From Escherichia phage tootiki: a stretch of 64,000 nucleotides of DNA. Made by a program: the position numbers and the translations under genes. The notes under the pieces are model-generated. The model was not told the DNA's origin and ran no database searches. It saw only the letters and a program-made list of their open reading frames with translations. The stretch is from sequence record MN850647.1; one strand, 5' to 3'. Positions 17,105-46,287 of the stretch are shown here, piece after piece; within the stretch, counting starts at the first letter, position 1; each line of letters begins with the position of its first letter.

Positions 17105-17110
17105 ACTAAT

Positions 17111-17186: not shown

Positions 17187-17192
17187 AATATC

Positions 17193-17268: not shown

Positions 17269-17275
17269 ATTAATT

Positions 17276-17699: not shown

Positions 17700-17717
17700 C
17701 CTAATAAGACTTTGGCA

Positions 17718-17932: not shown

Positions 17933-18280
17933 CTAATACTTTGCATGTCTTACCCTATGGCAATTTGAACATAGCAAAACACATTTGTCAAGTTCATCTT
18001 TTAGTTCTTGAGAGAACTTAAGGCTTTTCCTATGACCAATGTTAAAATCTTTATCTGAAGGATTCAAATGATGGAAGTCATACACTGCTGGATGATATTT
18101 CTTACCACAATCATGACAAACCCCACCTTTGTACTCAATAGCTGAGAGTTTAAGTGCTCTTTGTCTTTCTATGGTTTGCTCATTAACACACTTTTTACAG
18201 TATGAATGAGTTCTCCTACCATCTTTCATGTAGAAATCATTTTCATCCTTGCTAAGTTTGCACCTAATACAAGTTTTCAT
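17933..18280 (-). CDS. HNH endonuclease
   Basis: Cys pairs CIRCK and CKKC, HH-LNPSD-N motif, CSNCH; start moved to MKTCIRC because track start overlaps a tRNA. Confidence 0.7.
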   Translation of the reverse strand: MKTCIRCKLSKDENDFYMKDGRRTHSYCKKCVNEQTIERQRALKLSAIEYKGGVCHDCGKKYHPAVYDFHHLNPSDKDFNIGHRKSLKFSQELKDELDKCVLLCSNCHRVRHAKY

Positions 18281-18294
18281 GATTTCTCCAAAAT

Positions 18295-18376
18295 TGGTCG
18301 AGGCGGCAGGACTCGAACCCGCATACTCCACTTACTCGGTTAACGTCTGTTTAGAAGACAGATGAGATACGCCCCG
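18295..18376 (-). tRNA. tRNA-like; possible Arg (anticodon TCT) with atypical geometry
   Basis: acceptor CGGGGCG/CGCCTCG, T-arm GCGGG-TTCGAGT-CCTGC, CCA encoded; perfect hairpin TCTGT-CTTCTAA-ACAGA but no room for a D-arm. Confidence 0.35.
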
Positions 18377-18624
18377 TAATTATCTTTAAAGACTCTCTTA
18401 GAAAGCCCTTAAAGATGCCCACCTTATTAATCATACCGTGGGCTAGTACGCCAAATTCTTTGATGAGGGATTGGAAGACCTCACTGGTGTTTAGCCTATC
18501 AAGCTACTGCCAGAAAAACATTGTCGTTTGCATTTATTTTAAATTTGCAAAATAGACGCTACGCAACGAAAACTAAGGTTACTATAAAGTAGTCACATCT
18601 CAGTGTCAACAACTTTATTGAAAG

Positions 18625-18699
18625 TGGTTGTAGGTGAGGGTATCGAACCCTCTTCTAACGGTTATCAGCCGTTTGCATTACCATTTATGCTAACCCACA
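18625..18699 (-). tRNA. tRNA-Ile (anticodon GAT)
   Basis: D-stem GCAT/ATGC, anticodon stem AACGG/CCGTT loop CTGATAA, T-arm GAGGG-TTCGATA-CCCTC, discriminator A. Confidence 0.7.
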
Positions 18700-18701
18700 A
18701 T

Positions 18702-18778
18702 TGGAGGTTCAGGTGGGATTCAAACCCACATTCATAGGGCTTATGAAACCCTTGCATTACCTTATCTGCGACTGAACC
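18702..18778 (-). tRNA. tRNA-Met (anticodon CAT)
   Basis: acceptor GGTTCAG/CTGAACC, anticodon stem AAGGG/GCCCT loop TTCATAA, T-arm GTGGG-TTTGAAT-CCCAC. Confidence 0.65.
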
Positions 18779-18783
18779 ATTTT

Positions 18784-18859
18784 TGGTAGAAGTGGAGGGA
18801 TTCGAACCCATCGCCTGTCAGATTAAAAGTCTGCCGCATCACCATTCTGCTACACTTCC
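18784..18859 (-). tRNA. tRNA-Lys (anticodon TTT)
   Basis: acceptor GGAAGTG/CACTTCT, anticodon loop CTTTTAA, discriminator A; T-stem ATGGG/CCCTC imperfect. Confidence 0.55.
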
Positions 18860-19010
18860 ATTAAATCATCTTTGCAGTAACCTACGCAGACCTTGCTAAA
18901 GGGTCTGTAGAGTCATTTCATATTAAGCTAATCTAGAATCATACTAAGGAAATTCATCGGCACTCATGGGACGACATAATTAGCCACATAAGCTACTGCA
19001 AAGATAATTA

Positions 19011-19141
19011 CCAGACCGTTGTTTATCATCTTAAGTGCTACCATTACACCAACTCGACCTCTGCCGAGTGAAGGAATCGAACCTTCGCCTTTTCTTTACC
19101 GAGAAATAGATTGTTTAAGTTTTGCTGTAAACGGTCTTCTG
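19011..19141 (-). ncRNA. structured spacer module a: terminal inverted repeat enclosing a tRNA-like T-arm and D-arm-like segment
   Basis: minus strand CAGAAGACCG...CGGTCTGG ends pair; internal GAAGG-TTCGATT-CCTTC and AGTTGGTGTAATGGTAGCAC; no anticodon arm. Confidence 0.4.
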
Positions 19142-19154
19142 TAAATTTGTTGAG

Positions 19155-19230
19155 CCAGACCAAGTTTTAAATTTTTCAAAATTGAATTGGCTTGAAAATA
19201 TCATACATTCTTGCTGTATTTGGTCTTCTG
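19155..19230 (-). repeat. spacer module b (CCAGACCA...TGGTCTTCTG inverted-repeat unit)
   Basis: same terminal inverted repeat as module a. Confidence 0.4.
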
Positions 19231-19291
19231 CTCCTTTAAAGAATACTCGTAAGAACTCTTTAAGGGAGGGGCTAAATAGCCCTCTCAAAAT

Positions 19292-19368
19292 TGGCGGCTA
19301 CGATGAGACTTGAACTCAAATCATCTCCCGTGACAGGGGAGTATTTTCTCCAGTTAAACTACATAGCC
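19292..19368 (-). tRNA. tRNA-Asp (anticodon GTC)
   Basis: anticodon stem CTCCC/GGGAG loop CTGTCAC, acceptor GGCTATG/CGTAGCC, discriminator G. Confidence 0.7.
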
Positions 19369-19373
19369 TTTAT

Positions 19374-19461
19374 TGGTGTGCCGTGTAGGAGTCGAACCTA
19401 CCGAGTCTCAATGACAAGGGATTTACAGTCCCCACCGCTACCATCTACGGGATAACGACAC
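19374..19461 (-). tRNA. tRNA-Tyr (anticodon GTA), class II
   Basis: T-arm GTAGG-TTCGACT-CCTAC, anticodon loop CTGTAAA, about 15 nt variable arm, discriminator A. Confidence 0.7.
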
Positions 19462-19469
19462 ATTTAATT

Positions 19470-19546
19470 TGGCGGTTAGTCAGGGATTCGAACCCTGTGC
19501 CATTCGCTTAACAGGCGACCGCACATACCTTATGTGCTTCCTAACC
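19470..19546 (-). tRNA. tRNA-Asn (anticodon GTT)
   Basis: D-stem GCAC/GTGC, anticodon loop CTGTTAA, T-arm CAGGG-TTCGAAT-CCCTG, discriminator G. Confidence 0.65.
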
Positions 19547-19557
19547 TTAATACATTG

Positions 19558-19618
19558 CCAGACCGTGTTTTTTCTTTTATCCGCAAAAAAGTATTTTGTT
19601 GCTGAATACGGTCTTCTG
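19558..19618 (-). repeat. spacer module c (CCAGACCG...CGGTCTTCTG inverted-repeat unit)
   Basis: same terminal inverted repeat; internal GCAA/TTGC hairpin. Confidence 0.4.
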
Positions 19619-19624
19619 CAAAAT

Positions 19625-19701
19625 TGGAGGCGGGTGCAGGAGTCGAACCTGCCGATACCATGCTAATGAGACATGTGAGACGCCCTTTCTCTATACCCGC
19701 A
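19625..19701 (-). tRNA. tRNA-Met (anticodon CAT), second copy with 1-72 mismatch
   Basis: T-arm GCAGG-TTCGACT-CCTGC, D-stem GAGA/TCTC, anticodon stem CATGT/GCATG loop CTCATTA; T1-C72 unpaired. Confidence 0.55.
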
Positions 19702-19712
19702 ATTCTCAATGA

Positions 19713-19784
19713 CCAGACCAAATATCTTCTTTGTCCGATTTCGTGTCAGATGAGTAGATTAAGTTTGCTGTAATTGGTCTTCTG
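19713..19784 (-). repeat. spacer module d (CCAGACCA...TGGTCTTCTG inverted-repeat unit)
   Basis: same terminal inverted repeat as modules a-c. Confidence 0.4.
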
Positions 19785-19791
19785 TCAAAAC

Positions 19792-19869
19792 TGGCGTTCC
19801 AGAAGGGATTTGAACCCTCAGATATCCACTTTGAAAGAGTGGTGACTTTACCATTTTGTCTACTGGAAC
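19792..19869 (-). tRNA. tRNA-Glu (anticodon TTC)
   Basis: acceptor GTTCCAG/CTGGAAC, anticodon stem CCACT/AGTGG loop CTTTCAA, discriminator G. Confidence 0.7.
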
Positions 19870-19876
19870 ATTAATT

Positions 19877-19953
19877 TGGTCTCTGTTGGAGGACTTGAAC
19901 CTCCGGCCTTACCGCCCCAAACGGAATGCTCTACCAAGCTGAGCTAAACAGAG
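19877..19953 (-). tRNA. tRNA-Pro (anticodon TGG)
   Basis: acceptor CTCTGTT/AACAGAG, D-stem GCTC/GAGC, anticodon loop TTTGGGG, T-arm GGAGG-TTCAAGT-CCTCC. Confidence 0.65.
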
Positions 19954-24497: not shown

Positions 24498-24961
24498 TGC
24501 AACTCTCAAGAAAAGGTTTAGAAGCTATTAAGTTCTTTGAAGGTCTGAAGTTAGAGGCTTACAAAGACTCCGCCGGAATCCCAACAATTGGGTATGGTAC
24601 AATCCGTATTGACGGAAAACCTGTTAAGATGGGTATGAAAATTACTGCTGAACAAGCTGAACAGTATCTTCTCGCAGATGTTGAAAAGTTTGTTGCAGCA
24701 GTGAACAAAGCTATCAAGGTTCCAACCTCTCAGAATGAGTTCGATGCACTTGTAAGTGAAACATACAACATTGGTATCACAGCTATGCAGGATTCTACAT
24801 TTATTAAGCGCCACAATGCTGGTAATAAGGTAGGTTGTGCAGAAGCTATGCAGTGGTGGAACAAGATTACAGTCAAAGGTGAGAAGGTCACTTCAAACGG
24901 TCTGAAAAACAGACGTAGAATGGAAGCTGACATTTATCTTGACAGTGTATATCCAAAGTAA
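24497..24961 (+). CDS. endolysin, GH24 lysozyme family
   Basis: 154 aa; LEAYKDSAGIPTIGYG signature with catalytic E/D/T pattern of T4-type lysozymes. Confidence 0.8.
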   Translation: MQLSRKGLEAIKFFEGLKLEAYKDSAGIPTIGYGTIRIDGKPVKMGMKITAEQAEQYLLADVEKFVAAVNKAIKVPTSQNEFDALVSETYNIGITAMQDSTFIKRHNAGNKVGCAEAMQWWNKITVKGEKVTSNGLKNRRRMEADIYLDSVYPK

Positions 24962-24970
24962 TATCTTCAT

Positions 24971-24999
24971 AGGCTCCTTCGGGAGCCTTTTTTATTTTC
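24971..24999 (+). terminator. intrinsic terminator after endolysin
   Basis: AGGCTCC-TTCG-GGAGCCT hairpin followed by TTTTTTATTTT. Confidence 0.7.
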
Positions 25000-26429: not shown

Positions 26430-27010
26430 TGTCCGAAGAGCAACAGGATATCATTCCACAAGTAACACTTGTACAACACTTTGGAAATATTGAAGGGTGT
26501 GTAGCACTTTTTCAACCAAGCATCAACTCTCCTGCAAAAGTTTGCAAGCTGACTATGAATGTTAACAACATCAGTGTTTGCCTTGTTGATGAAGTTCAGT
26601 ACTTCAAGTTTAATGACAGAGAGGTTGATGCTGCACTATTGAAGTACCGAGCAAGCCTCGAAAAAGACATCGACCACAAAGAACTTGTAACACTGTTTGG
26701 TGACCTTCACAAGCTTCTTGAAAAGGTTATGAAGCGTACATATTACATGAACAATGGCTCAATCATCACCACTTTGATTTCACCATGTATTTCAGAGCCG
26801 ATTTTAACTGATGACGGTGGGTACTACGTGGTAGCATCAGCAGACCCTGATTGGTGGATGAAGAACACAGCACTTAAGACGGTTATCGAGGCTATCCGTG
26901 AACATATCCCTTCATTCAGCCCGTGGAAAGGTAAAAGTGATGATTTTATCGCACTATTGAGTGAAGAGAGTAACAAGCGCAGTGCATTACTGCCTAAAAA
27001 ATACTCTTGA
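26429..27010 (+). CDS. hypothetical protein
   Basis: 193 aa. Confidence 0.5.
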   Translation: MSEEQQDIIPQVTLVQHFGNIEGCVALFQPSINSPAKVCKLTMNVNNISVCLVDEVQYFKFNDREVDAALLKYRASLEKDIDHKELVTLFGDLHKLLEKVMKRTYYMNNGSIITTLISPCISEPILTDDGGYYVVASADPDWWMKNTALKTVIEAIREHIPSFSPWKGKSDDFIALLSEESNKRSALLPKKYS

Positions 27011-27093
27011 CCGAGTATACAAAACTGATTATGATGGGAGCTATCGAGAGGTAGTTCCCTTTTTAGTTTCTAGATAAGAGACATGGTAAAAGA

Positions 27094-29232: not shown

Positions 29233-30348
29233 TTATAAAATTTTATCGGTTGTCCCAACCTCTGGGTCACCATCATATGTGAATAAAATATCTACCCTTC
29301 TTAACAACCTTCTTAATCTTACTCTCTATATAGTTATATAGTACTATATAGTATCTTAGTAACTATCTAGTGGTCTTAATAGCCCTCTGTATAGCCCTTC
29401 TAAATAGCCTTCTAAACACTCTTCTAACAAGCCCTCTTAACCACCTATACAATCACCTTAACCATCCCTCTACACCCTCTTAGAAGCTCCTATACACCTC
29501 TTAATCTCTAGGTTAGCTATGGCACTCTCTATAGGTGTTCACTAGGTAATACTAAGCCTCTATATAGACTGTTTTAACAAACTTAACAGGAATATCTTTA
29601 CAGACCTTACCTCACAAGGTCTAACACGGTACTAACAAGGTATCTTGTAAGCCTGTTTCTACCTGTATTTTTAAAAGACTGTATAGGTAATTATTCAGAA
29701 TTTTAAAATTTTTATAAAATAGGACTATCAAGTCATTTTTTAGGGTCTTTGAAGGAACTGAAAAATATCTGTCTAGGATGTATATCTGCTTGGTAGCCCT
29801 TAACAGCTCCCTTACAAGTACTTTGCAAAATTTTAAAATATCCTTAACAATCTCTTAACAGTTCTCACATCTTCTTAACAACTCTTCAAAGGTCTTAACA
29901 GATTCTTAACAGAACTAACAAGGCTGTAACAGTTTCTTAACAGTTGATACATAATCTTTACAGAGGCTTAACAGATGACTAACAAGAGCTAACAAGTTAA
30001 TTTTAAAGAGTTATTTTGTTAAGATTATTAACAAGTTTCTAACAAGTCTTTAATCTTTTTAACAAGCTATTAACATGGTCACTATCTCTTTCTTATCGTT
30101 CCCTTTCCTTTCTTAGTGATTCTTTAAACATACCTCTTAAAAGCTCTCTATAGCTCTTTATAAGCTCTTTTAAGTCTCTTCCTAGTAGTTACACCCCAAC
30201 TGTACAGATAGCTCTCTATAGGGCTTTACAGGAGCTTTTAAGGCTATGTCAAAGACTCTTACAAGGCTTTTACGTGGTCTTAACAGAGATTTAACAAGGG
30301 GCTAACAAGTTGCTAACAAGTGTCTTAAAAGCATAACTATGTAGGGAT

Positions 30349-30380
30349 TGTTAAGAAATTGTTAAGAAAATGTTAAGGGG
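30349..30380. repeat. three inverted-orientation iterons (TTGTTAAG)
   Basis: TTGTTAAGAAATTGTTAAGAAAATGTTAAGGG; reverse complement of the upstream TAACA iteron. Confidence 0.6.
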
Positions 30381-30393
30381 GCTAGTATTTACG

Positions 30394-30443
30394 TAACTTT
30401 TAAGCTACTTCAAAATAACTTTTAAGCTACTTCAAAATAACTT
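30394..30443. repeat. 23 bp perfect tandem direct repeat (2 copies)
   Basis: AACTTTTAAGCTACTTCAAAATA repeated back to back. Confidence 0.7.
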
Positions 30444-30767
30444 TATAGCCCCCTTCTTAGATATTCACAAGATAACTAATGAGATGATAAAGCTTACACC
30501 CTTATAAGATTCTTTTAAGGCTCTGGGAAGCTTTATAAAGGGCTTTTAATGGTGAGGTAATGCAATCCCTTAAGTTAGGTTAATAAGGTCGTTATAGGGC
30601 TTTATAGAGCGTTTAAATGGTTGCCCTTCCCTTTCGGGTTATGGGCTTATATTTAAGTTGATTTGATAAGGGGCTATAGAGTAAGCTATAGAGTTATTGT
30701 TTTTTAAGGTCTGATAAGATTCTGGAAAGGAAAGGGAAAGGGTTGTATAAGGGATTTGATAAGACGT

Positions 30768-30790
30768 AAAAAAGCCCCATATAAAGGGGC
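30768..30790 (-). terminator. intrinsic terminator after minus-strand small-gene block
   Basis: minus strand GCCCC-TTTATAT-GGGGC followed by TTTTTT. Confidence 0.55.
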
Positions 30791-30829
30791 TGTAAAGGTA
30801 TCTGGGGCTATTTAGCCCCGTTGCGGCGT

Positions 30830-31078
30830 TTAGTTAGTGCCTTCTTTGTCGTAGTACAAGGAGACAATTTTTTCACCCCAGTAGTGGTATGTATAACCCT
30901 CTTTGAGAACTTCCTCTTTTGTTTCTTTCCAGAATTCATCAGAGGGGTTGTAGTCACTGATGGTCTGGCTGATAAGGCCTTTCACCATTTCAAAGGCGTT
31001 ATCAGTACCTACAAGGTCAAATTTAACGTCCAGAGAGTAGAAGCCAAATTCGTTAACAGTTGCGCGGATAGTAGCCAT
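30830..31078 (-). CDS. hypothetical small protein
   Basis: 82 aa; preceded by type A cassette. Confidence 0.5.
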   Translation of the reverse strand: MATIRATVNEFGFYSLDVKFDLVGTDNAFEMVKGLISQTISDYNPSDEFWKETKEEVLKEGYTYHYWGEKIVSLYYDKEGTN

Positions 31079-31154
31079 TTTAGAATCTCCAGTTTAGGAA
31101 GTTGATTAAGGGTTTTGTTTAGCGGGGAAGGTCATTCCCTCCCCGTTGATTGAC

Positions 31155-31183
31155 AATTTACAGACTTTTGATTGTTTCGTCAA
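31155..31183 (-). promoter_or_regulatory. sigma70-like promoter within type A cassette
   Basis: minus strand TTGACG, 17 nt, TAAATT, followed by 5' hairpin and GGAGA RBS. Confidence 0.5.
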
Positions 31184-31688
31184 TATCTTTTTCAATATCT
31201 TTTAAAGTTTTTTCTAAGTTCTTGATATTGAAAGATAAACCTTCTCCCAGTGTCTTAGAGTAACCGCTAGGACGTGAGTCATATAGTTCAATTTCTTCTA
31301 CTTCGAAGAGGCTAACCAACTCACCGCTTACACTGTAAGCCATTGAAACAGTATTTACAGGGGCTTTATAAAACTTGTTTAAGGACTTGATAGAACGTTC
31401 ATAAGCCATTTTATAGCTATTTAAAAGGTTTTTAACGTGGCTGTGAACGTTTTTACACTCATCTAAATAAAGACCTAAAAACATCGGGAGAAGTTCCGCG
31501 ACAGCTTGCATAAAGTGAGAGACTACAACGGTTGCAACATTACGACGATGAACGTAATAAGCCCCGTTTTCTGATTTGGTAATGGTTGCAAAGTGTACCC
31601 CATTACAACGAAATTCATAGGTATCTTTAACAGGCTTAGACATTACATTATTTGAACGAATATAGTTGATAGCTTTGAACTTGTTCAT
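31158..31688 (-). CDS. hypothetical protein
   Basis: start moved to ATG (MNKFKAINY) preceded by conserved GGAGATTCTAAA leader. Confidence 0.5.
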   Translation of the reverse strand: MNKFKAINYIRSNNVMSKPVKDTYEFRCNGVHFATITKSENGAYYVHRRNVATVVVSHFMQAVAELLPMFLGLYLDECKNVHSHVKNLLNSYKMAYERSIKSLNKFYKAPVNTVSMAYSVSGELVSLFEVEEIELYDSRPSGYSKTLGEGLSFNIKNLEKTLKDIEKDIDETIKSL

Positions 31689-31910
31689 TTTAGAATCTCC
31701 TAGTTTAAGGACTTTACTTAGTAGGGAGGTTATTGCCTCCCCGTTGATGAGTAATTTACTTGTTTTGATATCTGATTGCAAGCAATTTTTTAAGTTTATC
31801 TATAAAGAATCTTTTAAGTTAATCCCTTTTAGATAAACCCCCTCGAACAAATCTACCAATGTCAAGGGGCGTTGTCAATACTTTTTTGAAAGTTTTTTGT
31901 AAGTTATTGA

Positions 31911-32252
31911 TTAACTGATGAATATTTTTTCAGGTTTTACATAGCTGATACGCTGACTTTTTAGCAGGTCATCCCAGATTAACGCGGCGATATGGGCATA
32001 ACCGGATTCACGTAAAAGCTTCATTGTTTTACTTCTCGTTTCAAAACGGCTTGCGTAGTACTCACTATTTAAAACCGTTTTATTCCCTTCGTTATCTACA
32101 TGGATAATCTGCATCACTTGAAAGGGGCTTGTGTCCTCGCCTTTGTTCCACTGTTCAAAGTATTTTAGGCACTGCATAGGTGACATCTTATCACTTACTT
32201 GAGTTGACCAAGATGAATTTTCTTTATCGGTAATTACGGTTACATAAGCCAT
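31911..32252 (-). CDS. hypothetical protein
   Basis: 113 aa; conserved leader upstream. Confidence 0.5.
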   Translation of the reverse strand: MAYVTVITDKENSSWSTQVSDKMSPMQCLKYFEQWNKGEDTSPFQVMQIIHVDNEGNKTVLNSEYYASRFETRSKTMKLLRESGYAHIAALIWDDLLKSQRISYVKPEKIFIS

Positions 32253-32317
32253 TTTTGAATCTCCTAGTTTAAGGATTGTACTTAGTGGGGAAGGTCATTC
32301 CCTCCCCGTTGATTGAC

Positions 32318-32346
32318 AATTTACAGATTTTTATCAGGCTTGTCTA
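32318..32346 (-). promoter_or_regulatory. sigma70-like promoter within type A cassette
   Basis: minus strand TAGACA, 17 nt, TAAATT. Confidence 0.45.
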
Positions 32347-32577
32347 GTCTTTTTCAATGATAATTTCATACTGACCATCTACGCTGTCAAAATAGATACC
32401 GTCTTCATCTTCTGTCTTAAAGTAACATTGTATATCATCACTAGCGGGATAGTCTTGTCTTGCTATCTGACAGACCTGAACAGCATTTTCTTTACTTCCT
32501 GTAAACTCCTCAAGCCCTTTAAAATCACATGAATGACCATTACAAATAGAAAGGATAAGATAAACGGTTGTAAGCAT
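32344..32577 (-). CDS. hypothetical small secreted or membrane protein
   Basis: 77 aa with hydrophobic N-terminus. Confidence 0.45.
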   Translation of the reverse strand: MLTTVYLILSICNGHSCDFKGLEEFTGSKENAVQVCQIARQDYPASDDIQCYFKTEDEDGIYFDSVDGQYEIIIEKD

Positions 32578-32643
32578 GATTTAAGCCTCTTAAAAGCCCC
32601 TGTGAGGGGCTAATCAGTGTTTATAAGGTGATTGCATAGGTTT

Positions 32644-33186
32644 TTAGAAAAAGCTCTTTAAATCTCTCTCTGTGATGTTTCCCGCTAGTGTATCCATGAT
32701 GTCACAAAAAACCTGAATACTATCCGACTGTTGAATACTTTTAGCAAGAAGCTCCAGAGACTCATCAAGATAATTTAAATTTGGGTTATCCAATGAAGGA
32801 AGACAAAAAGGCGAAAACATCGCATTAAACTCGGTTACGTAAACCTTTTTAATCCAATTTAAATCGAAGTATTCTGTAAAACTTGCTACGCCAGACATAT
32901 TATCACAAGAATAATCATCATTCAGGTCATCCTCTGGGATATCAAGTTCTAAGATAACAATATTTTGGGTTTTCATCTGGAAAGCGGCCGTAATAGTGGC
33001 ATTACCTAACGCTTGCTGGATGCCTTCGGCTGTTATCTCTTCCTCATCGTCGCCATAGATTTTATTTTCTGGATACACGTAAAAATTGCCGTCCATGTCC
33101 GAACAATTCCATGCACCTGATGGCTTGTCACCGTTATTAATCAGGTTGAGGAAATTTTCTTGAGTAGTACCGTGAAAGCATTTCAT
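32644..33186 (-). CDS. hypothetical acidic protein
   Basis: 180 aa; type B cassette upstream. Confidence 0.5.
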   Translation of the reverse strand: MKCFHGTTQENFLNLINNGDKPSGAWNCSDMDGNFYVYPENKIYGDDEEEITAEGIQQALGNATITAAFQMKTQNIVILELDIPEDDLNDDYSCDNMSGVASFTEYFDLNWIKKVYVTEFNAMFSPFCLPSLDNPNLNYLDESLELLAKSIQQSDSIQVFCDIMDTLAGNITERDLKSFF

Positions 33187-33200
33187 TTTTGAATCTCCAG

Positions 33201-33275
33201 TTTAGGATTTAGTGGTAAAGCTCTTTATCTGGGGCTTACTTTATCGAACTATAAGCCCCTTGTAAAGTACTTTAT
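33201..33275. repeat. type B cassette copy 1 (about 75 bp, near-identical to 34004-34078 and 36060-36134)
   Basis: TTAGGATTTAGTGGTAAAGCTCTTTATCTGGGGCTTACTTTATCGAACTATAAGCCCCTTGTAAAGTACTTTAT. Confidence 0.7.
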
Positions 33276-33475
33276 TTGTTATTTTTTACTACTTTTAAAA
33301 CCGCACGATAGCCTAAGCAATAGGAATCACCGAAGAGCGACCGACCCATGAAGGAGTCCTCTGTAATATCTTTCGCCGTGACGGTTTTTTCTACGCCGTG
33401 AAAGAGAACTACATCACCGACTTTAATATCTTTGATGTGTGTAGTTTCAATGGTTAAACCGTTAATAATAGCCAT
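33272..33475 (-). CDS. hypothetical small protein
   Basis: 67 aa beginning MAII. Confidence 0.45.
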   Translation of the reverse strand: MAIINGLTIETTHIKDIKVGDVVLFHGVEKTVTAKDITEDSFMGRSLFGDSYCLGYRAVLKVVKNNK

Positions 33476-33538
33476 TTTTGAATCTCCAGTTTAGGACTTT
33501 ATTTAGTGGGGAAGGTCATTCCCGCCCCGTTGATGTGT

Positions 33539-33567
33539 AATTTAATCTATCTGAAAACCAATGTCAA
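33539..33567 (-). promoter_or_regulatory. sigma70-like promoter with upstream A15 tract
   Basis: minus strand A15 then TTGACA, 17 nt, TAAATT, then GGGGCGGGAATGACCTTCCCC hairpin and RBS. Confidence 0.55.
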
Positions 33568-33583
33568 CAATTTTTTTTTTTTT

Positions 33584-33988
33584 TTAGAGTTCTGCATAAA
33601 TTGCATCACAGATACCACGAAAATCATGATTTGTCAAATTACGTTGTAACCAAGTGGCGAAAAAGTCAGCGATTGCAAAGTTAGCGTCATACTCGACAGA
33701 TAGCCACACTTTAACAGCAAACCGAAACATTTTCAAATCAAGCTCTTTATTCATTACCTTAGATTTGCCTAACATGTCGGACATTTCATATTGTGCACCG
33801 TCTAGCGTGATACCTGCTGCAACGTCAGCCAATGAGTTTTTTACGTTTTCAACGTCTAAGATAACGCTTTGAATCTTCCCAATAATGTTGTGCAATGTTT
33901 CGTCCGGTGCTGATGACGTAATAACATTAATCCGGTTAACGGTCAAACGTGCTTTTAAGATTGATAACTCGCGATTATTAATAGCCAT
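33584..33988 (-). CDS. hypothetical protein
   Basis: track start is a TTG inside the conserved leader; ATG start (MAINN) follows GGAGA. Confidence 0.5.
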   Translation of the reverse strand: MAINNRELSILKARLTVNRINVITSSAPDETLHNIIGKIQSVILDVENVKNSLADVAAGITLDGAQYEMSDMLGKSKVMNKELDLKMFRFAVKVWLSVEYDANFAIADFFATWLQRNLTNHDFRGICDAIYAEL

Positions 33989-34003
33989 TTTTAAGTTCTC
34001 CAA

Positions 34004-34078
34004 TTTAGGATTTAGTGGTAAAGCTCTTTATCTGGGGCTTACTTTATCGAACTATAAGCCCCTTGTAAAGTACTTTAT
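34004..34078. repeat. type B cassette copy 2
   Basis: near-identical to 33201-33275. Confidence 0.7.
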
Positions 34079-34347
34079 ACTAAATGCAGCTTTTTACCTT
34101 TTACTATGATGTAACTCGATGCGCTATTGCTTTGCACATCCTGATAAATTCTGCGCAAACGGCCTTCGTAGTATACTTTCCAACTGGTTGGAATCTTTTT
34201 CCCGTATCCTGTAGCAGTTTTTTGTAGTCCTGCAAGTTGCCAATCTAAGATATGTTGTTCGGCTTGTAAATCCTCGAAGTGCATTACACCGTTCACATAG
34301 TGACGAAGGGTTATGTTTAAGGTGCGACCGTTGTTAGTAGTATACAT
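34075..34347 (-). CDS. hypothetical protein
   Basis: 90 aa. Confidence 0.45.
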   Translation of the reverse strand: MYTTNNGRTLNITLRHYVNGVMHFEDLQAEQHILDWQLAGLQKTATGYGKKIPTSWKVYYEGRLRRIYQDVQSNSASSYIIVKGKKLHLV

Positions 34348-34434
34348 TTTGAATCTCCTAGTTTAAGGACTTTGTTTAGTGGGGAGGTCATTACCTCCCG
34401 TTGATTAGTAATTTACTTGTTTTAAAAACCAAAA

Positions 34435-34767
34435 TCAAGAGAAATTTTTTCGTTTGCTCAATTCTTGAACAATTACAGCGTAGTAGTCTTTTAAGTCACT
34501 GACATTTAAAGCATTTATCAGAGAATTATAATCATCGACTAACTGAAAATCATCTTTGAAAATGTCGCTGATTTGATAAGTTTTTGATTGAAATCTGAAG
34601 CTCATTTCTAGCCGCTTTATTTGCTCATCACTGAGGCGCCCTAGAAAGCTTTCTACAAGGTTATTGCTAACCTGCTGTGTGATTGCCTTATTTGCTAGAT
34701 TATAGGCTTTATATGCCTTATATAGCGCGAAAATGGCAATGATTGCAGTGATACCAGTCATTAACAT
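34435..34767 (-). CDS. hypothetical membrane protein
   Basis: 110 aa with N-terminal TM helix. Confidence 0.45.
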   Translation of the reverse strand: MLMTGITAIIAIFALYKAYKAYNLANKAITQQVSNNLVESFLGRLSDEQIKRLEMSFRFQSKTYQISDIFKDDFQLVDDYNSLINALNVSDLKDYYAVIVQELSKRKNFS

Positions 34768-35057
34768 GGTGTTTCCTCTTTACGTGATACTTTGCCATTT
34801 ACAGTTATCTCATAAGAATCTAGTAAGTCACTTTTAGACTTTACTGGACTTTTAAAAGTATCATCATAAATATTTACTTGCAATACAGGTTTTTTATACT
34901 CCCTGCAACTATTCCATAAGCAAATCACTACGCGACGGCCTTTTATTTTGCCGTGCAACCATTCCATAACATCATGATTATTTCTTGATGTCTCGATAAA
35001 ATCAATTTTGTTGAGTAATTTGCTCAGATTTTCACGCACTTGATTTGATAATTTCAT
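34761..35057 (-). CDS. hypothetical protein
   Basis: 98 aa. Confidence 0.45.
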   Translation of the reverse strand: MKLSNQVRENLSKLLNKIDFIETSRNNHDVMEWLHGKIKGRRVVICLWNSCREYKKPVLQVNIYDDTFKSPVKSKSDLLDSYEITVNGKVSRKEETPC

Positions 35058-35149
35058 TTTAGAATCTCCTAGTTTAAGGGCTTTATTTGATAAATCTCTT
35101 TATCTGGGGCTATCTTACCAGCTTGATAACCCCGTGTAAAGAAATCTAT

Positions 35150-35662
35150 TTAGTTCTTAAAGATATTCATCACTGAGTCTTTCAACGATTCCAAACGTTC
35201 TAATACTTCAGTTTCTGCGTCTGAATTGTTCACCTCTTCTTTTAGTCTATCTTCTAAATCCTCACCGTCACTATAGCACCAATCGAAAGCGTAACCAATA
35301 TAAAAGCTGTCTAAAACCGTTTTACCGTTTGCATCTACAACTTTCGCGGCAATGTTATACTCTGAAGCTTCTAAATCTCTTTCTAGTTCTTCCTGTAAGC
35401 TTGCGTAAGCCTCTTTTGATGGATTTTCCCGGCCTTGTTTTGCATAGTCACTAGAAAGCTGCTTAAGGCTGTAATGTAAAGGGATTGCATATTTAAAATC
35501 ATTACGCTGACAGTTAGGATTTTTAATCGTCACACCACCTTGATGGTCATCTGTAAACTTCCAATTATCAAGATTATGGCTTGCTTCAAAGCAATTTACC
35601 GCTTCATAGATAATGGTGAATTTTTCTTTTACAACTTCAAAAGTAGCGTCTACAGTTTTCAT
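35150..35662 (-). CDS. hypothetical acidic protein
   Basis: 170 aa. Confidence 0.5.
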   Translation of the reverse strand: MKTVDATFEVVKEKFTIIYEAVNCFEASHNLDNWKFTDDHQGGVTIKNPNCQRNDFKYAIPLHYSLKQLSSDYAKQGRENPSKEAYASLQEELERDLEASEYNIAAKVVDANGKTVLDSFYIGYAFDWCYSDGEDLEDRLKEEVNNSDAETEVLERLESLKDSVMNIFKN

Positions 35663-35747
35663 TTTTGAATCTCCAATTTAGGATTTAGTGGTAAAGCTCT
35701 TTATCTGGGGCTTAAGATATCAACTTTTAAACCCCATGTAAAGTACT

Positions 35748-36041
35748 TTATTTGTTAATTTTCAGCTTTGCATAACTTCTCATTGTACGAATGGTGGATG
35801 TTAATGCTACGCGTCTAATGTATGCCTTTTTCGTGTATACATTTGTCTTCCCGATAGTGTTTACACATGTAAAAAGGTTTATCGGTGAATTTTTTAACTT
35901 CAACTGTTTATCAGCCTTCACGCCCCACCTTACAGCAGATTGTTTTCCGTTGTCAACCACTTTCCCGCATAACTTTTTAGCCATAACGCGAGCGTCATCA
36001 CGAGTTTTTGCAGCAATTACAACGTTTTTGATAATAGCCAT
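35748..36041 (-). CDS. hypothetical protein
   Basis: start moved from leader TTG to ATG (MAIIK). Confidence 0.45.
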   Translation of the reverse strand: MAIIKNVVIAAKTRDDARVMAKKLCGKVVDNGKQSAVRWGVKADKQLKLKNSPINLFTCVNTIGKTNVYTKKAYIRRVALTSTIRTMRSYAKLKINK

Positions 36042-36059
36042 TTTTAAGTTCTCCAATTT

Positions 36060-36134
36060 AGGATTTAGTGGTAAAGCTCTTTATCTGGGGCTTACTTTAT
36101 CGAACTATAAGCCCCTTGTAAAGTACTTTATTTA
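36060..36134. repeat. type B cassette copy 3
   Basis: near-identical to 33201-33275. Confidence 0.7.
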
Positions 36135-36334
36135 TCGTAGTAGTAAATTGCTGTCTGTCTTGTAAACTTCTTAGTATTTCTTGTCAGATAGCAATTAGAA
36201 TTAATAGCCGTTTCTACATAGTTGCAATAGTCAGCTTCTGATATTCTAGACCATACGCCACAGATTTGCATGTAAAAACGTTTTACCTTTGTGTGAATGT
36301 TAGTTGTAACCATCAATTCGCGACTGTACAGCAT
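36128..36334 (-). CDS. hypothetical Cys-containing small protein
   Basis: 68 aa; conserved leader upstream. Confidence 0.45.
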   Translation of the reverse strand: MLYSRELMVTTNIHTKVKRFYMQICGVWSRISEADYCNYVETAINSNCYLTRNTKKFTRQTAIYYYDK

Positions 36335-36584
36335 TTTTAGATTCTCCAGTTTAGGAAGTGGGCTTGATTGCCCGTCTGATGCAGATATTAGATAACTATA
36401 CTCAAAGAGTCAATAGGAATTTTAAAAATATTTTTTGCAAAAATTGTAATGAAACGGGTGCGCGCGACTACCACAAAACAGAACTACAATCAAGAATTAT
36501 TTTTCAATCCGCTACAAATTTTTCTGTTGACTTTTATTTCCAGATGTGGTAGCCTTGTGAGAAATGGCGACATCCCCACCTGTA

Positions 36585-36780
36585 CCCACCTACCTGCACA
36601 ATTCTAAAATGATTTTTCTTGCCCGACCTGAGCGGGGTCTGCACGTTTTGAAAATGAAAAAGCTCTTTGGAGATTACCTGCACAGTTTAAAAATGAATTT
36701 TCTCTTTGGAGTTCAAAATTCTCTCTACAGATTTCTCTACAGAACTCTACCTGCACAAATCTGAAATGAAAAAGCCCTCC
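36585..36780. repeat. direct repeat array (ACCTGCACA box with AAAATGA(A/T)TTTTC, 3-4 copies)
   Basis: copies at 36591, 36675, 36748 with degenerate copy at 36638; repeated TCTTTGGAG. Confidence 0.6.
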
Positions 36781-36842
36781 TTACCTGAAAAATTTACCAG
36801 ATAAGAAAGGCTTAGGCTATTGTGAATATCCTACAGAGTTTC

Positions 36843-37628
36843 TTAGTTCTTTGCGTCTAAGAAGGTAACTTCTGGTGAAGAGAAAACTGTCTCGATATCC
36901 TCATCAGTTCTTGCATAGATATAAGTATCTGCATCACTGCCAAATGTTACTGCAATCCTGTGATTGCTCTTCGACAGGTGGGTAACTAGAGCGTTACTCA
37001 GAGACATCTTTTCAACCGGAGGGTTACTTTGATGTATCTTACCTTTTCTTCGTCTGAAGAGGGTAACTGCGTTATCTGTGAACACTGCTACACCTGCAAA
37101 GTATTCTGGTTCACAGTAGTTCTTCCAACCTGAGCGTAACTTGTGGTACATCTCTCCTTCGTAGACATAAAGATACACATCTACACTCTTCATCACCTGA
37201 TTAATGATAACTGTGACGGCTTGAGGGTCTAGCCCACCGATACCTGCACCAATCATAGGTAAACCAACCTTCTTCAACTGGTTGACTTCACAGTATCTGT
37301 TAAGCTGCTTCAAAGATGACTCTAAAGCACTGTATCGGGCATCTTTACCAGTCTTAAGCTGAGTGTAAAGGTTAGCTATACGGCCTTGTTCTAAACGTGC
37401 TACAGAGAAATTACCCAGTAAATTTTCACAGGGTTTGTGACCTATACCACCTGCATAGAGGTAAACTTCTGTATCGGTCTCATATGCTTTTGGGTAAAGT
37501 TTAGAAATCTTGTCAGCGATACCTACACCCATTAAATTCATACAGTTGCAACCGTGACCAATAATATCAAACTTACCTTTATCAAATGCTGAGAAGATAT
37601 CCCCATTGATGATTTTTACAATACCCAT
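36843..37628 (-). CDS. macro-domain-like protein (ADP-ribose binding or hydrolase candidate)
   Basis: 261 aa; NGDIF, DIIGHGCNCMNLMGVGIA and LPMIGAGIGG resemble macro-domain GDIT, NAAN..GGGV and ISTG.YG motifs. Confidence 0.45.
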   Translation of the reverse strand: MGIVKIINGDIFSAFDKGKFDIIGHGCNCMNLMGVGIADKISKLYPKAYETDTEVYLYAGGIGHKPCENLLGNFSVARLEQGRIANLYTQLKTGKDARYSALESSLKQLNRYCEVNQLKKVGLPMIGAGIGGLDPQAVTVIINQVMKSVDVYLYVYEGEMYHKLRSGWKNYCEPEYFAGVAVFTDNAVTLFRRRKGKIHQSNPPVEKMSLSNALVTHLSKSNHRIAVTFGSDADTYIYARTDEDIETVFSSPEVTFLDAKN

Positions 37629-37829
37629 TTAGCATCTCTCCCAAGATTCTTTATCTTCTGAAGGTTTTACACGTTGTCCTTCGTGGTCTACCCAGATACA
37701 TCCACAACCTTCACAGATTACTGGCATTGCATAGCCAGCTTTAAAGTCATCTTCAGTGATAAGACCTTTTAAGTCACCTGTATCACGTCCGAACATTTCG
37801 ATAGAACAGTCTTTGCAGAAGTCAGCCAT
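37629..37829 (-). CDS. Cys-rich small protein (zinc-ribbon candidate)
   Basis: CKDC and CEGCGC pairs; start moved to MADFC with GAGG upstream. Confidence 0.4.
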   Translation of the reverse strand: MADFCKDCSIEMFGRDTGDLKGLITEDDFKAGYAMPVICEGCGCIWVDHEGQRVKPSEDKESWERC

Positions 37830-38049
37830 GAATAATTGCCTCTTGAATGATGATACCTTTACCACAACGACTTTTAAAGTTTTCCAATGGTTCAGAGATG
37901 AAGCCACGTAAGCAGTCAGTGAATACTAAGTTCTTCCTGTAAGCTATCACATCATTTGCTGTAAATGGGATGACCTCATTTCGTCCAATGAACACTGCTG
38001 ACCTGATAAGTTTTCGTGCCTTTTTATCTCTGGCTAGTATTACTTTCAT
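37822..38049 (-). CDS. hypothetical protein
   Basis: 75 aa. Confidence 0.4.
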   Translation of the reverse strand: MKVILARDKKARKLIRSAVFIGRNEVIPFTANDVIAYRKNLVFTDCLRGFISEPLENFKSRCGKGIIIQEAIIHG

Positions 38050-43886: not shown

Positions 43887-43915
43887 TTCTAAGGGGCTTT
43901 GAAGCCCCTTGTCAA
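43887..43915 (-). promoter_or_regulatory. sigma70-like promoter with hairpin-forming spacer
   Basis: minus strand TTGACA, 17 nt spacer AGGGGCTTCAAAGCCCC, TTAGAAT. Confidence 0.5.
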
Positions 43916-43920
43916 GCACT

Positions 43921-46287
43921 TTAATCGTAAACTGTTGTACCTTCTGGAACACATTTCACATTAAAGCCCAAAAACTTACTCACTTCAATAGGTGACACTT
44001 TATTCCAATCTAAATGGGAAAGCAAGAAGTTTTCTTGTTTTCTTTTTGAAAGGTAGTTTGCCAACTTAATAACCATGCGGTCGCCAGCTTTCTTAATTTT
44101 CTTGTAAAGCTTTGTATCATTGTCAAGACATTCTTTCAAAGTCTTCAACACACTAATAGTGTAAGTGTATGCAAATGGTGCAGCAACATACTGGATTTTA
44201 CCGAAAATTGCCTCTACAGCCTCTTCGTTACCTTCTAGGAAGATAGTTTTGCTAGTATCTCGTGAATAGCAATAGCCACGAGAAATCTTCCTGTTATTGA
44301 ACGTAAAGTTTCTGGCAATAATCCAACTGCTTGTAAGGTTAAGAACACCGTCCATGTAGATGCGTGTCATATACCTGTTATGATTAATCCAGTGAACATC
44401 AGTTAAGCTGTCGTTCAAGAGCTTCTCATCTACTTCAATCCAGTCTTCTGGTATCTTTTTCCAATTTGCTTTTCGGAAAACATAGACTGTCTTCCCTATA
44501 ACATTAGCAACTGACTTCGCTACATCTTCTGGAGATGAGCAAAAGCATTCGCCATCAACTGTGTCACCTACTGCCTTAATGTAAAGCTGGGGTTCTTCAA
44601 TTGTGTCTAAGTCTTCTGACACCTCTGTGTATGAAGCTACAGATTCTGCTGGAACTGCTTTCCAAAGCTTTACAACACCCCTTACAGCTTCTTTGCGCTG
44701 GTAATGGTGCTCCTTATCAGACATTTTCACAATCTTTAACAAGCTTTTATCAAGTTTGTGCAGATTGATTAAATCATCTAACTCTTTTTCAGTCGAGAAT
44801 ACAAACACAATACCATTGTATCTGTGAAACAGGCTTGACTCGTTGGCGTAGTCTCGACATGCACCACGCAAGATTTGATTGCGGCCTACAGTCTTCTCAG
44901 TACCATTTTTATTGCGACGGTCATTAATCACGAACAAAAACTGTTCAATTTGGCTTTTACGCATTGCACCAAAGATATTGAACATACTTGCCTCTTGAGT
45001 GTAGGAAAGTGCTGTTGCACGAATCTTACTCTCTAAAGAGTTGAACTTGACATAAGCAACTGGGTCATAAAGATAATCTACTTTAGGTATATTGTTCCCG
45101 TTCCTATCAACCTTAATATTACCTTTACCGTCACGTTCATAAATGACTGAGCCGTCTTCTGCGTAGATAATTCCACGACGAATGTTTAGTAACTCTTCTT
45201 CCAGAGAATCAAGCTTAACACCGCCCCACTCTAGCTTTGGACACACAGCATTAAACATCTCTCGTGAGTTCAAACGTAACTCAGCATAAGACTGTGCAGC
45301 ATCCATGAGTGTAGGTTGGCTATTAACTTTCTTGATAACATCCTTTGTAATCGCTTCAGTTATCTTTTTAGTAGCCTCAATGATAACATTTTTTGTCGTA
45401 TCATTCATCTGCAATGCTTCACGAGAAGCTGCAATAGCAACTGAACCAATAGGCATGTAGATGTTTACAAGGTCTACGCTCCTACGGAAAAATTCTGGCA
45501 AGATTTTGAAGAAATCATCACCAAGTAATGCTTCCATGTTCACTGGATAGGCAATATTACCCATAACCACGTTAAACTCTGTTCTATTGCTGCTTGAACG
45601 CCAGCTATGCTTATGAGTCATGGCATCATAGACACCTTCTTCACGAGCAATCACATCCATATCTGCTAATATATCATTATACTCCACATTACTCTCTGGT
45701 TTTACAGCAAAGTATGAGTATACATTACCAGCCTCTTCAAAGAACTTTGAAATACGGTGGTCAGCAACTGCTACACGTACAGCTAAACCATTAGGTTCAT
45801 TTGTTGGGTTAGTAGTAAGCTTAGTTACTTGAGGAATACCATTCTCAAGGTAAACAGAGTACTTATTAACAACACCATCAACATAACTAGATACTGTGAA
45901 TGACTGAGCAATTGCAAATGGGGATTTTGAGCCGATACCCATTGCACCAATGTAATCATTAGAGTCATTCTTCGTAGAAGCCCCGTAGTTCAGATACAAA
46001 CTCATTACTTTGTCGTGGGTTAAACCAGTTCCAAAGTCACGGACTTCAAAGTAAGGCTCAAATCGAGTAGGTAAATGCACATGGAATGGGATGTTCTCTT
46101 TTCCAGCTTCTTTCTGAGCATCCACTGCATTACATGACAGTTCACGAATCACTGCTCGCTCTTTAAATGTGTATACACCAGAACTCAAAAGGCTGAACAT
46201 TTCAGGTGTCATTGTAATCTGTGCTTGAGATGTCTCCAAAGAAGTTGAACTCTTAATCACTTCTGCGTGGTCGTTTACCATGCGCAT
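43921..46287 (-). CDS. rIIA: rIIA-like protein with GHKL ATPase domain
   Basis: 788 aa; N-box RELSCNAVDA and G1-box DFGTGLT typical of Bergerat-fold ATPases. Confidence 0.5.
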   Translation of the reverse strand: MRMVNDHAEVIKSSTSLETSQAQITMTPEMFSLLSSGVYTFKERAVIRELSCNAVDAQKEAGKENIPFHVHLPTRFEPYFEVRDFGTGLTHDKVMSLYLNYGASTKNDSNDYIGAMGIGSKSPFAIAQSFTVSSYVDGVVNKYSVYLENGIPQVTKLTTNPTNEPNGLAVRVAVADHRISKFFEEAGNVYSYFAVKPESNVEYNDILADMDVIAREEGVYDAMTHKHSWRSSSNRTEFNVVMGNIAYPVNMEALLGDDFFKILPEFFRRSVDLVNIYMPIGSVAIAASREALQMNDTTKNVIIEATKKITEAITKDVIKKVNSQPTLMDAAQSYAELRLNSREMFNAVCPKLEWGGVKLDSLEEELLNIRRGIIYAEDGSVIYERDGKGNIKVDRNGNNIPKVDYLYDPVAYVKFNSLESKIRATALSYTQEASMFNIFGAMRKSQIEQFLFVINDRRNKNGTEKTVGRNQILRGACRDYANESSLFHRYNGIVFVFSTEKELDDLINLHKLDKSLLKIVKMSDKEHHYQRKEAVRGVVKLWKAVPAESVASYTEVSEDLDTIEEPQLYIKAVGDTVDGECFCSSPEDVAKSVANVIGKTVYVFRKANWKKIPEDWIEVDEKLLNDSLTDVHWINHNRYMTRIYMDGVLNLTSSWIIARNFTFNNRKISRGYCYSRDTSKTIFLEGNEEAVEAIFGKIQYVAAPFAYTYTISVLKTLKECLDNDTKLYKKIKKAGDRMVIKLANYLSKRKQENFLLSHLDWNKVSPIEVSKFLGFNVKCVPEGTTVYD

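Follow-up and report, generated by a model that had tools for sequence, protein, structure and literature searches.

Candidate promoter, stem-loop, and ribosome-binding-site cassettes resembling T4 PeSLs in a plastic gene block of a Felix O1-like phage

The genome sequence of Escherichia phage tootiki (record MN850647.1) was analyzed over a stretch of 64,000 nucleotides, hereafter the window, which contains on its minus strand a block of small genes preceded by repeated intergenic cassettes. By its sequence, the window is Felixounavirus genome (Felix O1-like, Ounavirinae); the segment 30700-36500 matches 254 phage records at 94% identity or less, nearly all of them Escherichia, Salmonella, Shigella, and Citrobacter phages of Felixounavirus and its relatives. 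The block covers 5.6 kb (30.8-36.4 kb) and, according to the list of open reading frames (ORFs) and a reading of the minus strand, holds 13 small genes of unknown function (30830..36334), coding for proteins of 68, 97, 170, 98, 110, 90, 134, 67, 180, 77, 113, 176, and 82 aa. A Pfam scan of the first ten block proteins gives no match, and the PHROG matches of these ten are all of "unknown function". A cassette is found ahead of 11 of the 13 genes (five of Type A, five of Type B, and one lead promoter), in agreement with a sequence-only reading that had described minus-strand small genes with repeated cassettes at these positions. The cassettes probably combine a host-type promoter, a stem-loop, and a ribosome-binding site (RBS), in the manner of the promoter-early stem-loop (PeSL) elements of T4-like phages, and probably serve as recombination sites as well. 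The two remaining genes have none: the gene at 34767-34435 overlaps the stop codon of its upstream gene, and the one at 32577-32344 is preceded by a terminator-like hairpin, labelled "potential terminator" in phage Barry. The spacer of the latter (32578..32643, minus strand) consists of the hairpin GCCCCTCACAGGGGC at 32610-32596, followed by TTTTAAG, an AAGAGG RBS, and the ATG at 32577.

The counterpart of the block in Felix O1 comprises ORFs 15-23 and is bounded by the published terminators t13 and t23. Both have equivalents in tootiki, on the minus strand. The upstream boundary is an intrinsic terminator at 36772..36813, with a 17-bp stem and a T-run, identical in sequence to t13 in Table 2 of PMC3185647. 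The block ends at 30773..30819 with a hairpin, GGGGCTAAATAGCCCC (30819-30804), and an intrinsic terminator (30791-30773) corresponding to t23, also listed in PMC3185647. Between these limits, a repeat search recovers the cassettes as direct-repeat families (D1, D3, D5, D8, D9, and D11). Neither a motif search nor, for Type B, a covariance model finds a further copy of either type elsewhere in the 64-kb window. An Rfam 15 search of 29500-38000 with E-values up to 1 gives no match, and elsewhere in the window it gives only tRNAs.

The lead cassette (36335..36413; all cassette coordinates are on the minus strand) has TTGACT at 36413-36408 and, after 17 nt, TAATAT at 36390-36385. A small GGGC/GCCC hairpin follows at 36375-36358, then the RBS CTAAACTGGAGAATC and the ATG at 36334. 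Its promoter is kept in Erwinia phage M7 as TTGACT-N17-TATATT. In Type A the hairpin is GGGGAGGGAATGACCTTCCCC or a close variant. The five block copies all have TAAATT ahead of the hairpin and, exactly 17 nt further upstream, TTGATT, TTGACA, TAGACA, TTGCAA, or TTGACG, so that the earlier description of Type A as promoter elements at N17 followed by a hairpin stands, with an invariable -10 and a variable -35 hexamer in the block. The first copy (34348..34438) has its -35 TTGATT at 34438-34433, which holds the upstream TGA stop, its -10 at 34415-34410, the hairpin at 34399-34382, and the ATG at 34347. In the second (33476..33567), TTGACA at 33567-33562 and the -10 at 33544-33539 give a promoter match of 10/12, followed by the hairpin at 33528-33508 and the ATG at 33475. 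The third (32253..32346) has TAGACA at 32346-32341, holding a TAG stop, the -10 at 32323-32318, the hairpin at 32307-32287, and the ATG at 32252. The fourth lies in a long spacer (31689..31910), with TTGCAA at 31781-31776, the -10 at 31758-31753, the hairpin at 31742-31723, and the ATG at 31688. In the fifth (31079..31183), TTGACG at 31183-31178 is within the upstream coding sequence and the -10 at 31160-31155 holds its TAA stop; the hairpin at 31145-31123 (-20.7 kcal/mol, z -2.9) precedes the ATG at 31078.

Stop codons are built into the hexamers of both cassette types (TGA in TTGATT, TAG in TAGACA, TAA in TAAATT and in the TAAAGT of Type B). The upstream stops of Type A copies fall inside the -35, inside the -10, or in an A13 run. 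Of 78 Type A copies compared, 74 have TAAATT as the -10. The -35-like hexamer (TTGCAA, TTGACA, TAGACA, TTGACG, or TTGATT), 17 nt upstream and preceded by an A-tract, is found within the 3' ends of six unrelated genes. The stem starts 10 nt past the -10 and has 6-9 bp; 34 stem variants occur, and nearly all of them remain foldable, with energies of about -10 to -15 kcal/mol. The Type A loop was also considered as a mini-ORF (GGAGG...AUGA), a reading rejected because the loop variants AATAA and GATAA have no AUG. The 222-nt spacer of the fourth copy (31689-31910) also has an additional strong promoter match (TTGACA-17-TAGATT, 31878-31850, with TG before the -10) and a CCCCT...AGGGG inverted repeat. 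Its length is kept at 219-224 nt in the Felixounavirus loci compared, and some records annotate tiny ORFs in it.

Type B has the form TTTACAnGGGG...CCCCAGATAAAGAG, with block copies at 36122, 35742, 35140, 34069, and 33266. The sequence-only reading had seen in it a hairpin without a promoter. The hairpin is there in all five copies, but its GGGGCTTA/TAAGCCCC is only part of a three-tier structure of about 58 nt, and the absence of a promoter does not hold: Type B also bears a sigma-70-type -35 TTTACA and, 17 nt downstream, a TAnnnT -10. The first copy (36042..36130) has the upstream TAA stop at 36130-36128, the -35 at 36122-36117, the -10 TAAAGT at 36099-36094, the hairpin at 36130-36072 (top stem 36115-36087), and the ATG at 36041, and scores 93.7 bits with the covariance model. 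The second (35663..35750; 94.2 bits; -22.2 kcal/mol, z -4.8) has the -35 at 35742-35737, the -10 TATCTT at 35719-35714, the hairpin at 35750-35692, and the ATG at 35662. The third (35058..35152; 72.4 bits; -19.4 kcal/mol, z -4.2) is a variant with GGGGTTATC/GATAGCCCC, with the TAA stop at 35152-35150, the -35 at 35140-35135, the -10 TAAGAT at 35117-35112, the hairpin at about 35149-35090, and the ATG at 35057. The fourth (33989..34077; 92.6 bits) has the -35 at 34069-34064, the -10 TAAAGT at 34046-34041, the hairpin at 34077-34019, and the ATG at 33988. The fifth (33187..33274; 94.9 bits; -21.6 kcal/mol, z -5.0) has the -35 at 33266-33261, the -10 TAAAGT at 33243-33238, the hairpin at 33274-33216, and the ATG at 33186.

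The five Type B promoters of the block (TTTACA, 17 nt, then TAAAGT, TATCTT, or TAAGAT) all pass a promoter scan, which as a motif test recovers 9 of the 11 block cassettes. The cassettes were also compared in the homologous block of 19 relatives, which together with the window gives 20 phages of four genera (Felixounavirus, Mooglevirus, Suspvirus, and Kolesnikvirus). Among the 86 distinct Type B copies in this set TTTACA is invariant, and the TAnnnT element, with 14 different hexamers, lies at 17 nt in 83 and at 18 nt in 3. Its T, A, and final T never change, the T and A being located in a loop whose remaining bases vary freely. Such invariance within an otherwise variable loop is characteristic of sigma-70 -10 elements. 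In four of the five block copies the upstream stop TAA is the first triplet of a TAAAGT located 8 nt upstream of the -35. A-tracts precede every -35, in Type A as in Type B.

According to RNAfold, the Type B hairpin is a three-tier stem-loop of 6 + 5 + 9 bp, interrupted by 1x1 and 3x3 internal loops, with folding energies of -19 to -22 kcal/mol (z -4.2 to -5.0). It starts at the upstream stop codon (UAAAGU), carries the -35 in its 5' arm, and has the -10 across the loop and the 3' arm. Covariation was assessed with structure-anchored coordinates and with a covariance-model alignment, as a plain MAFFT alignment under-counts it, the GATAGCCCC variant being shifted by 1 nt. By the structure-anchored coordinates, 95-100% of copies are paired at top-stem positions 1-9, and just 14% at position 10. 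Compensatory switches occur at four top-stem positions (GC/UA, UA/AU, AU/UA, and five pair types at the ninth). In the covariance-model alignment (103 sense hits), which leans to the model's own structure, 98.3% of cells are paired and both sides change at six pairs. The covariation score is 0.176, compared with 0.064 after shuffling (0/500) and at most 0.038 when partners are slid. The copies of Kolesnikvirus (Erwinia phages) have GGTG/CACC in place of GGGG/CCCC and keep the three tiers and the promoter. The sense strand is about 1.5 kcal/mol more stable than the antisense, through G·U pairs, and the model scores 56-95 bits on the sense and 27-47 bits on the antisense strand. Because G·U pairs favor the sense strand and antisense scores are about half as high, the folding species is most likely the sense RNA. 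No T-run follows the stem in any Type A or Type B copy, the tails being ACTAAA (A) and AGATAAAG (B). A terminator scan flags none of these stems, yet it flags the canonical terminators at both ends of the block, which speaks against the cassettes being simple terminators. In phage Barry (L002), positions 2947-3211 contain a 127-nt tandem duplication that joins the final 55 nt of the 90-aa gene to a Type B cassette truncated just before the Shine-Dalgarno (SD) sequence; the record annotates it as Repeat_01.

The two cassette types converge at their 3' ends. The initiation context CTAAAYTGGAGAWTCTAAAATG has five matches at up to three mismatches, when shuffled sequences lead one to expect 0.01, and the remaining cassettes bear the leader variant CCTTAAACTAGGAGATTC; the shared context noted before is therefore present in one form or the other. 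GGAG(A) lies 7-9 nt ahead of the ATG in all 11 cassettes. Three proteins begin with MAI (MAII, MAIN, and MAII), as had been reported, and two others with MAY and MAT. The SD core GGAG is found in 10 of the 12 block genes called and in 23 of the 90 other genes of the window. The RegB endoribonuclease of T4 targets GGAG. In all cassettes a CCU(U) complement of the SD is located 5-6 nt upstream of it (e.g., at 33490-33478), and their pairing would permit an SD-sequestering mini-hairpin of 3-4 bp. The Kolesnikvirus cassettes keep the pairing with another sequence (CCUUAUAAAGG).

Comparison between relatives indicates that the block changes by whole units. In gene-order maps of 16 phages, each difference in presence or absence corresponds to a cassette-plus-gene unit, and cassettes also lie at the bounds of the permuted gene order of phage DE7. 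Every gain, loss, and reordering is bounded by cassettes, as the modular acquisition proposed by the sequence-only reading would predict. Among the ends of BLAST high-scoring segment pairs (HSPs) inside the block, 88 of 92 fall within the cassettes ±25 nt, which make up 33% of its length (nominal binomial p 4e-37, the events not being independent). Phages lacking the 170-aa gene bear one chimeric cassette at its place; in HK3, Barry, and VpaE1 the crossover falls after the hairpin but before the SD, and in TP15 at the ATGAAA start. Such variable crossover points fit homologous recombination. The 5' half of a cassette moves with the upstream gene and the 3' half with the downstream gene. A search for a preferred crossover point, through column-wise prediction of the upstream versus downstream gene family, was dropped because conserved gene order confounds the labels and anchoring on the ATG is imprecise.

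The block is also less widely shared than other regions. At least 80% of it is covered in 58 of 254 records, compared with 249 of 298 and 254 of 259 for same-sized controls in the structural and nrd genes, respectively, and none of the 254 reaches 95% identity. Type A and Type B cassettes number 4-9 per genome, all in one block and in a single orientation. The only record with 100% coverage of the block is GU169904.1, the 147-kb "Staphylococcus phage SA1", whose Felix O1-like enterobacterial segment suggests a chimeric or mislabelled assembly. The 180-aa protein (32644-33186, minus strand) has homologs at 32-40% identity in phages of Pseudomonas (about 92 kb), Vibrio (about 137 kb), and Pectobacterium. 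Within Felixounavirus it forms two allelic classes (>90% vs about 54% identity) that occupy one shared cassette-flanked slot.

PeSLs are known from the T4-like phages RB49/phi1, T4/PST, and KVP40/nt-1 (Arbiol et al. 2010, PMC2839356; Comeau et al. 2014, PMC4122927). The promoter consensus of those of T4/PST, TTTACW-N17-TAYWAT, is close to Type B, and their stem-loop takes one of five positions relative to the promoter (PMC2839356). All six PeSL features that a sequence can reveal are found in the block, and the resemblance first suggested for it is upheld. An upstream stop in AT-rich sequence is followed by a sigma-70-type promoter, a Gn-loop-Cn stem-loop with G·T pairs, and then SD and ATG. 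The stem-loop takes two of the five described positions, over the spacer and -10 in Type B and just downstream of the -10 in Type A. The cassettes cluster in a hyperplastic, ORFan-rich region, and the indel and replacement junctions between close relatives fall in the elements at variable crossover points. There are also differences. The cassettes belong to another subfamily (Ounavirinae, about 86 kb), PeSLs having so far been described only in T4-like myoviruses. Their sequences depart from the published consensus motifs, as judged without direct comparison. Two highly uniform types occupy one block, in contrast with the many PeSL variants spread over several regions. The three-tier stem-loop of Type B (about 58 nt) encloses the whole promoter and a stop codon, with covariation across four genera. 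Finally, promoter or terminator activity and the formation of mini-circles, which also define PeSLs, are experimental properties, and the cassettes are known here from their sequence. They are accordingly filed as elements of the same kind as PeSLs in a new lineage, and not as homologs of them.

What the sequences themselves show is how the cassettes are built and how well this is conserved, that the stems covary, and that junctions fall inside the cassettes. These are probably PeSL-like cassettes of an Ounavirinae phage, each made of a promoter for host sigma-70, a stem-loop, and an RBS, which also act as recombination sites; promoter activity and the role of the hairpin are inferred. Each accessory gene would have its own promoter for the unmodified host RNA polymerase and be expressed independently of its neighbors. 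Given the usual distance of about 7 nt between -10 and start, the Type A transcript would begin about 3 nt before the hairpin, and this 5'-terminal stem-loop would guard the mRNA from 5'-end-dependent decay. The Type B promoter lies within the hairpin of about 58 nt, its own transcript is predicted to start just past the top stem, and the hairpin could form only on RNA arriving from upstream. On such read-through RNA it may act as an attenuator, as an insulator, or as a 3'-end stabilizer or processing site for the upstream message. The near-identical direct repeats of 60-100 bp would be substrates for homologous recombination, presumably by the general pathway, allowing cassette-plus-gene units to be deleted, inserted, replaced, and reordered without breaking expression signals. 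As for timing, end-point reverse transcription PCR in Felix O1 found ORFs 16, 20, 21, and 22 maximal at 5 min and ORFs 14, 17, 19, and 23 at 25 min (PMC3185647). This weakly supports early expression of the block, and the co-regulation proposed earlier is plausible but, with maxima split between the two times, weakly supported.

Several points weigh against this interpretation. Four block ORFs of Felix O1 were detected as maximal at 25 min and not at 5 min, and the searchable literature contains neither transcription-start nor 3'-end data for any Ounavirinae phage. The -10 hexamers of the cassettes agree with TATAAT at just 3-5 of 6 positions, and the CTTTA of the Type B -35 doubles as half of an invariant helix, so that structure could add to its conservation. 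The covariation is drawn from closely related sequences and partly from a structure-fitted alignment, and BLAST HSPs tend to stop at intergenic repeats for technical reasons too. Lastly, the lack of a U-tract, together with canonical terminators at the block bounds, makes a terminator role such as that claimed for PeSL stem-loops doubtful.

A different account of the conserved structure would dispense with the promoters. The lead promoter would drive a single long polycistronic RNA across the block, the cassettes being RNA processing or stability signals only, Type B an RNase III-type intercistronic site, and the -35 and -10 hexamers incidental. The lead promoter is indeed strong, the hairpins lack a U-tract, a sense-strand RNA structure is under selection, and Type B has a stem of 6+5+9 bp with 1x1 and 3x3 internal loops. 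The RNase III sites of T7 are similar in size to the Type B hairpin, consist of about two helical turns of interrupted duplex, and are cleaved in vivo. This account is nevertheless unlikely, as it leaves unexplained the invariant T and A of a variable loop, 17 nt from an invariant TTTACA and with 14 hexamers, as well as the -35 hexamers and A-tracts that lie 17 nt from TAAATT in six unrelated gene ends; moreover, the Type A stem, at 6-9 bp, is too short for RNase III. An RNA role is compatible with the PeSL-like reading and could add to it, so that only the "no promoter" part is a true rival. Some GenBank annotators have labelled the hairpins as simple intrinsic terminators between genes, and a Type A copy of phage KhF2 lies under such a "terminator" feature. 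GC-rich intergenic stems would suit this function, and terminator or attenuator activity of such stem-loops has been reported for PeSLs (PMC2839356). It is very improbable here, since all A and B stems lack a T-run behind them, the scan that recognizes the bounding terminators passes over every one, and Type A has its own promoter ahead of the hairpin.

The symmetry of Type B could alternatively belong to the DNA, as two palindromic operators (TAAAGnnCTTTA) flanking the promoter, to which a dimeric regulator of phage or host would bind. Most copies have TAAAGTACTTTA overlapping the -35, and TAAAGAGCTTTA from about +1 to +15. However, the variant upstream of the 98-aa gene loses palindromy within the sites (TAGATTTCTTTA; TAAAGAGATTTA) and keeps the complementarity between left and right, which even grows to 13 bp. 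At pair 11-63, GC gives way to UA, and G·U pairs are tolerated on the sense strand only. On these three grounds the operators were rejected as highly unlikely. In this array of small same-orientation ORFs, an imperfect palindrome (about 58 nt, with internal loops and conserved folding) follows each ORF, and gain, loss, and permutation go cassette by cassette, which recalls an integron-like array with structure-specific sites of the attC type served by a phage enzyme. The PeSL authors themselves drew a comparison with integrons and suggested that a protein might bind GGGG/CCCC (PMC2839356). Yet crossovers occur at differing places in the cassettes, as homologous recombination predicts, and the attC core (RYYYAAC/GTTRRRY) is absent from the Type B alignment. 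Type A cassettes, which have only a short hairpin, also bound indels, and no integrase was seen, though none was looked for; such an array is very doubtful. A broader version takes the Type B hairpin as a folded-strand signal for a dedicated factor, either as a structure-specific recombination site (an integron-like array in a virulent phage) or as a read-through-folding or cruciform switch gating the embedded promoter. The hairpin, which encloses the stop codon, -35, and -10, and is kept by compensatory changes across four genera, would on this view be more than passive homology; this reading is quite unlikely. The multiple palindromic, intergenic copies, restricted to one lineage, might finally be selfish small mobile elements that spread to intergenic spaces without a role in expression, like repetitive extragenic palindromes (REP) or miniature inverted-repeat transposable elements (MITE). 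Such elements would not be expected in a single orientation, in a fixed register relative to the stop codon before them and the SD and ATG after them, and in a single block with 4-9 copies per genome that are the sole RBS source of each gene. With no opposite-orientation or intragenic copy in about 290 genomes, this origin is extremely improbable.

The PeSL-like cassettes share partial features with other known systems. Like the RNase III hairpins of the T7 early region, the Type B stem-loop is about 60 nt long, has upper and lower stems split by internal loops, lies between genes, early ones in T7, and involves the sense-strand RNA. The T7 sites have no promoter of their own, their genes sharing upstream promoters, whereas the Type B hairpin encloses -35 and -10. 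With integrons, the block has in common small same-orientation ORFs split by imperfect palindromes whose folding matters, and cassette-wise gain, loss, and reordering. It differs in the lack of attC core motifs and of any identified integrase (no search was aimed at one), in its variable crossover points, and in that integron cassettes are typically promoterless whereas every cassette-bearing gene here has its own predicted promoter. Stem-loops at the 5' terminus, such as that of the ompA 5' untranslated region, stabilize E. coli mRNAs. The Type A hairpin is likewise predicted about 3 nt from the 5' end of the transcript, before an A/U-rich leader and SD, with the difference that its start site is deduced from the position of the -10 alone.

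The repeats themselves are not new. In the 2010 paper on Felix O1, Type B and Type A appear as repeats of 57 and 39 bp, respectively, listed as direct repeats only, and the promoters it names are other sequences (PMC3185647). In the wV8 record these sites carry DR_ direct-repeat annotations, and the KhF2 record has a Type A copy marked as "terminator". The repeats are not discussed in the wV8 paper or in a comparative Felixounavirus paper of 2021, and a literature search with the motif string gave the Felix O1 paper as the sole relevant match. No searchable paper interprets them, and none was found that describes PeSLs outside T4-like phages. The Felix O1 genome paper left open how the genes between its many terminators are transcribed (PMC3185647); if the cassettes are active, each cassette-bearing small gene of the block would have its own host-type promoter. 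Shuffling of the PeSL type would reach a second, unrelated myovirus subfamily beyond the T4-like phages, which suggests convergent "plug-and-play" expression cassettes for accessory genes. The more than 250 sequenced Felixounavirus genomes with the same two cassette types are a natural data set for the frequency and location of recombination. Felix O1-like phages serve in the biocontrol of Salmonella and E. coli. The cassettes mark the fastest-changing gene content of these phages and would offer ready-made insertion sites for engineering.

Other elements of the window are related to the block by position or design. The non-coding leader of about 500 nt between t13 and the lead promoter contains, at 36590-36770 on the minus strand, four direct repeats TTTTTCATTTyNNAAnnyGTGCAGGTA. 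Outside this leader the window has no further full match to the motif, only one looser copy after a terminator at 42694. Felix O1 and two Kolesnikvirus phages, M7 and SE5, have the repeats at the same place and with conserved sequence. Candidate roles for them are as iterons, as sites for a regulator, or as a promoter class specific to the phage. Sigma-70-like promoters overlap or adjoin canonical terminator hairpins at 24938-24987 and 27006-27059 on the plus strand, and at 46849-46830, 43930-43893, 40922-40907, and 50407-50389 on the minus strand; one example is TTGACA-17-TATCTT followed by GGCTCCTTCGGGAGCC-T7. This phage thus appears to use terminator/promoter composites generally, and not only in the block. 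At 43893-43930 (minus strand), a promoter with a hairpin in its spacer, TTGACA aggggcttcaaagcccct TAGAAT, precedes the gene starting at 43841; it is PeSL-like and belongs to neither Type A nor Type B. Several other repeat families of the window derive from a cluster of 23 tRNA genes at 14700-19950 (minus strand), as expected in a Felix O1-like phage.

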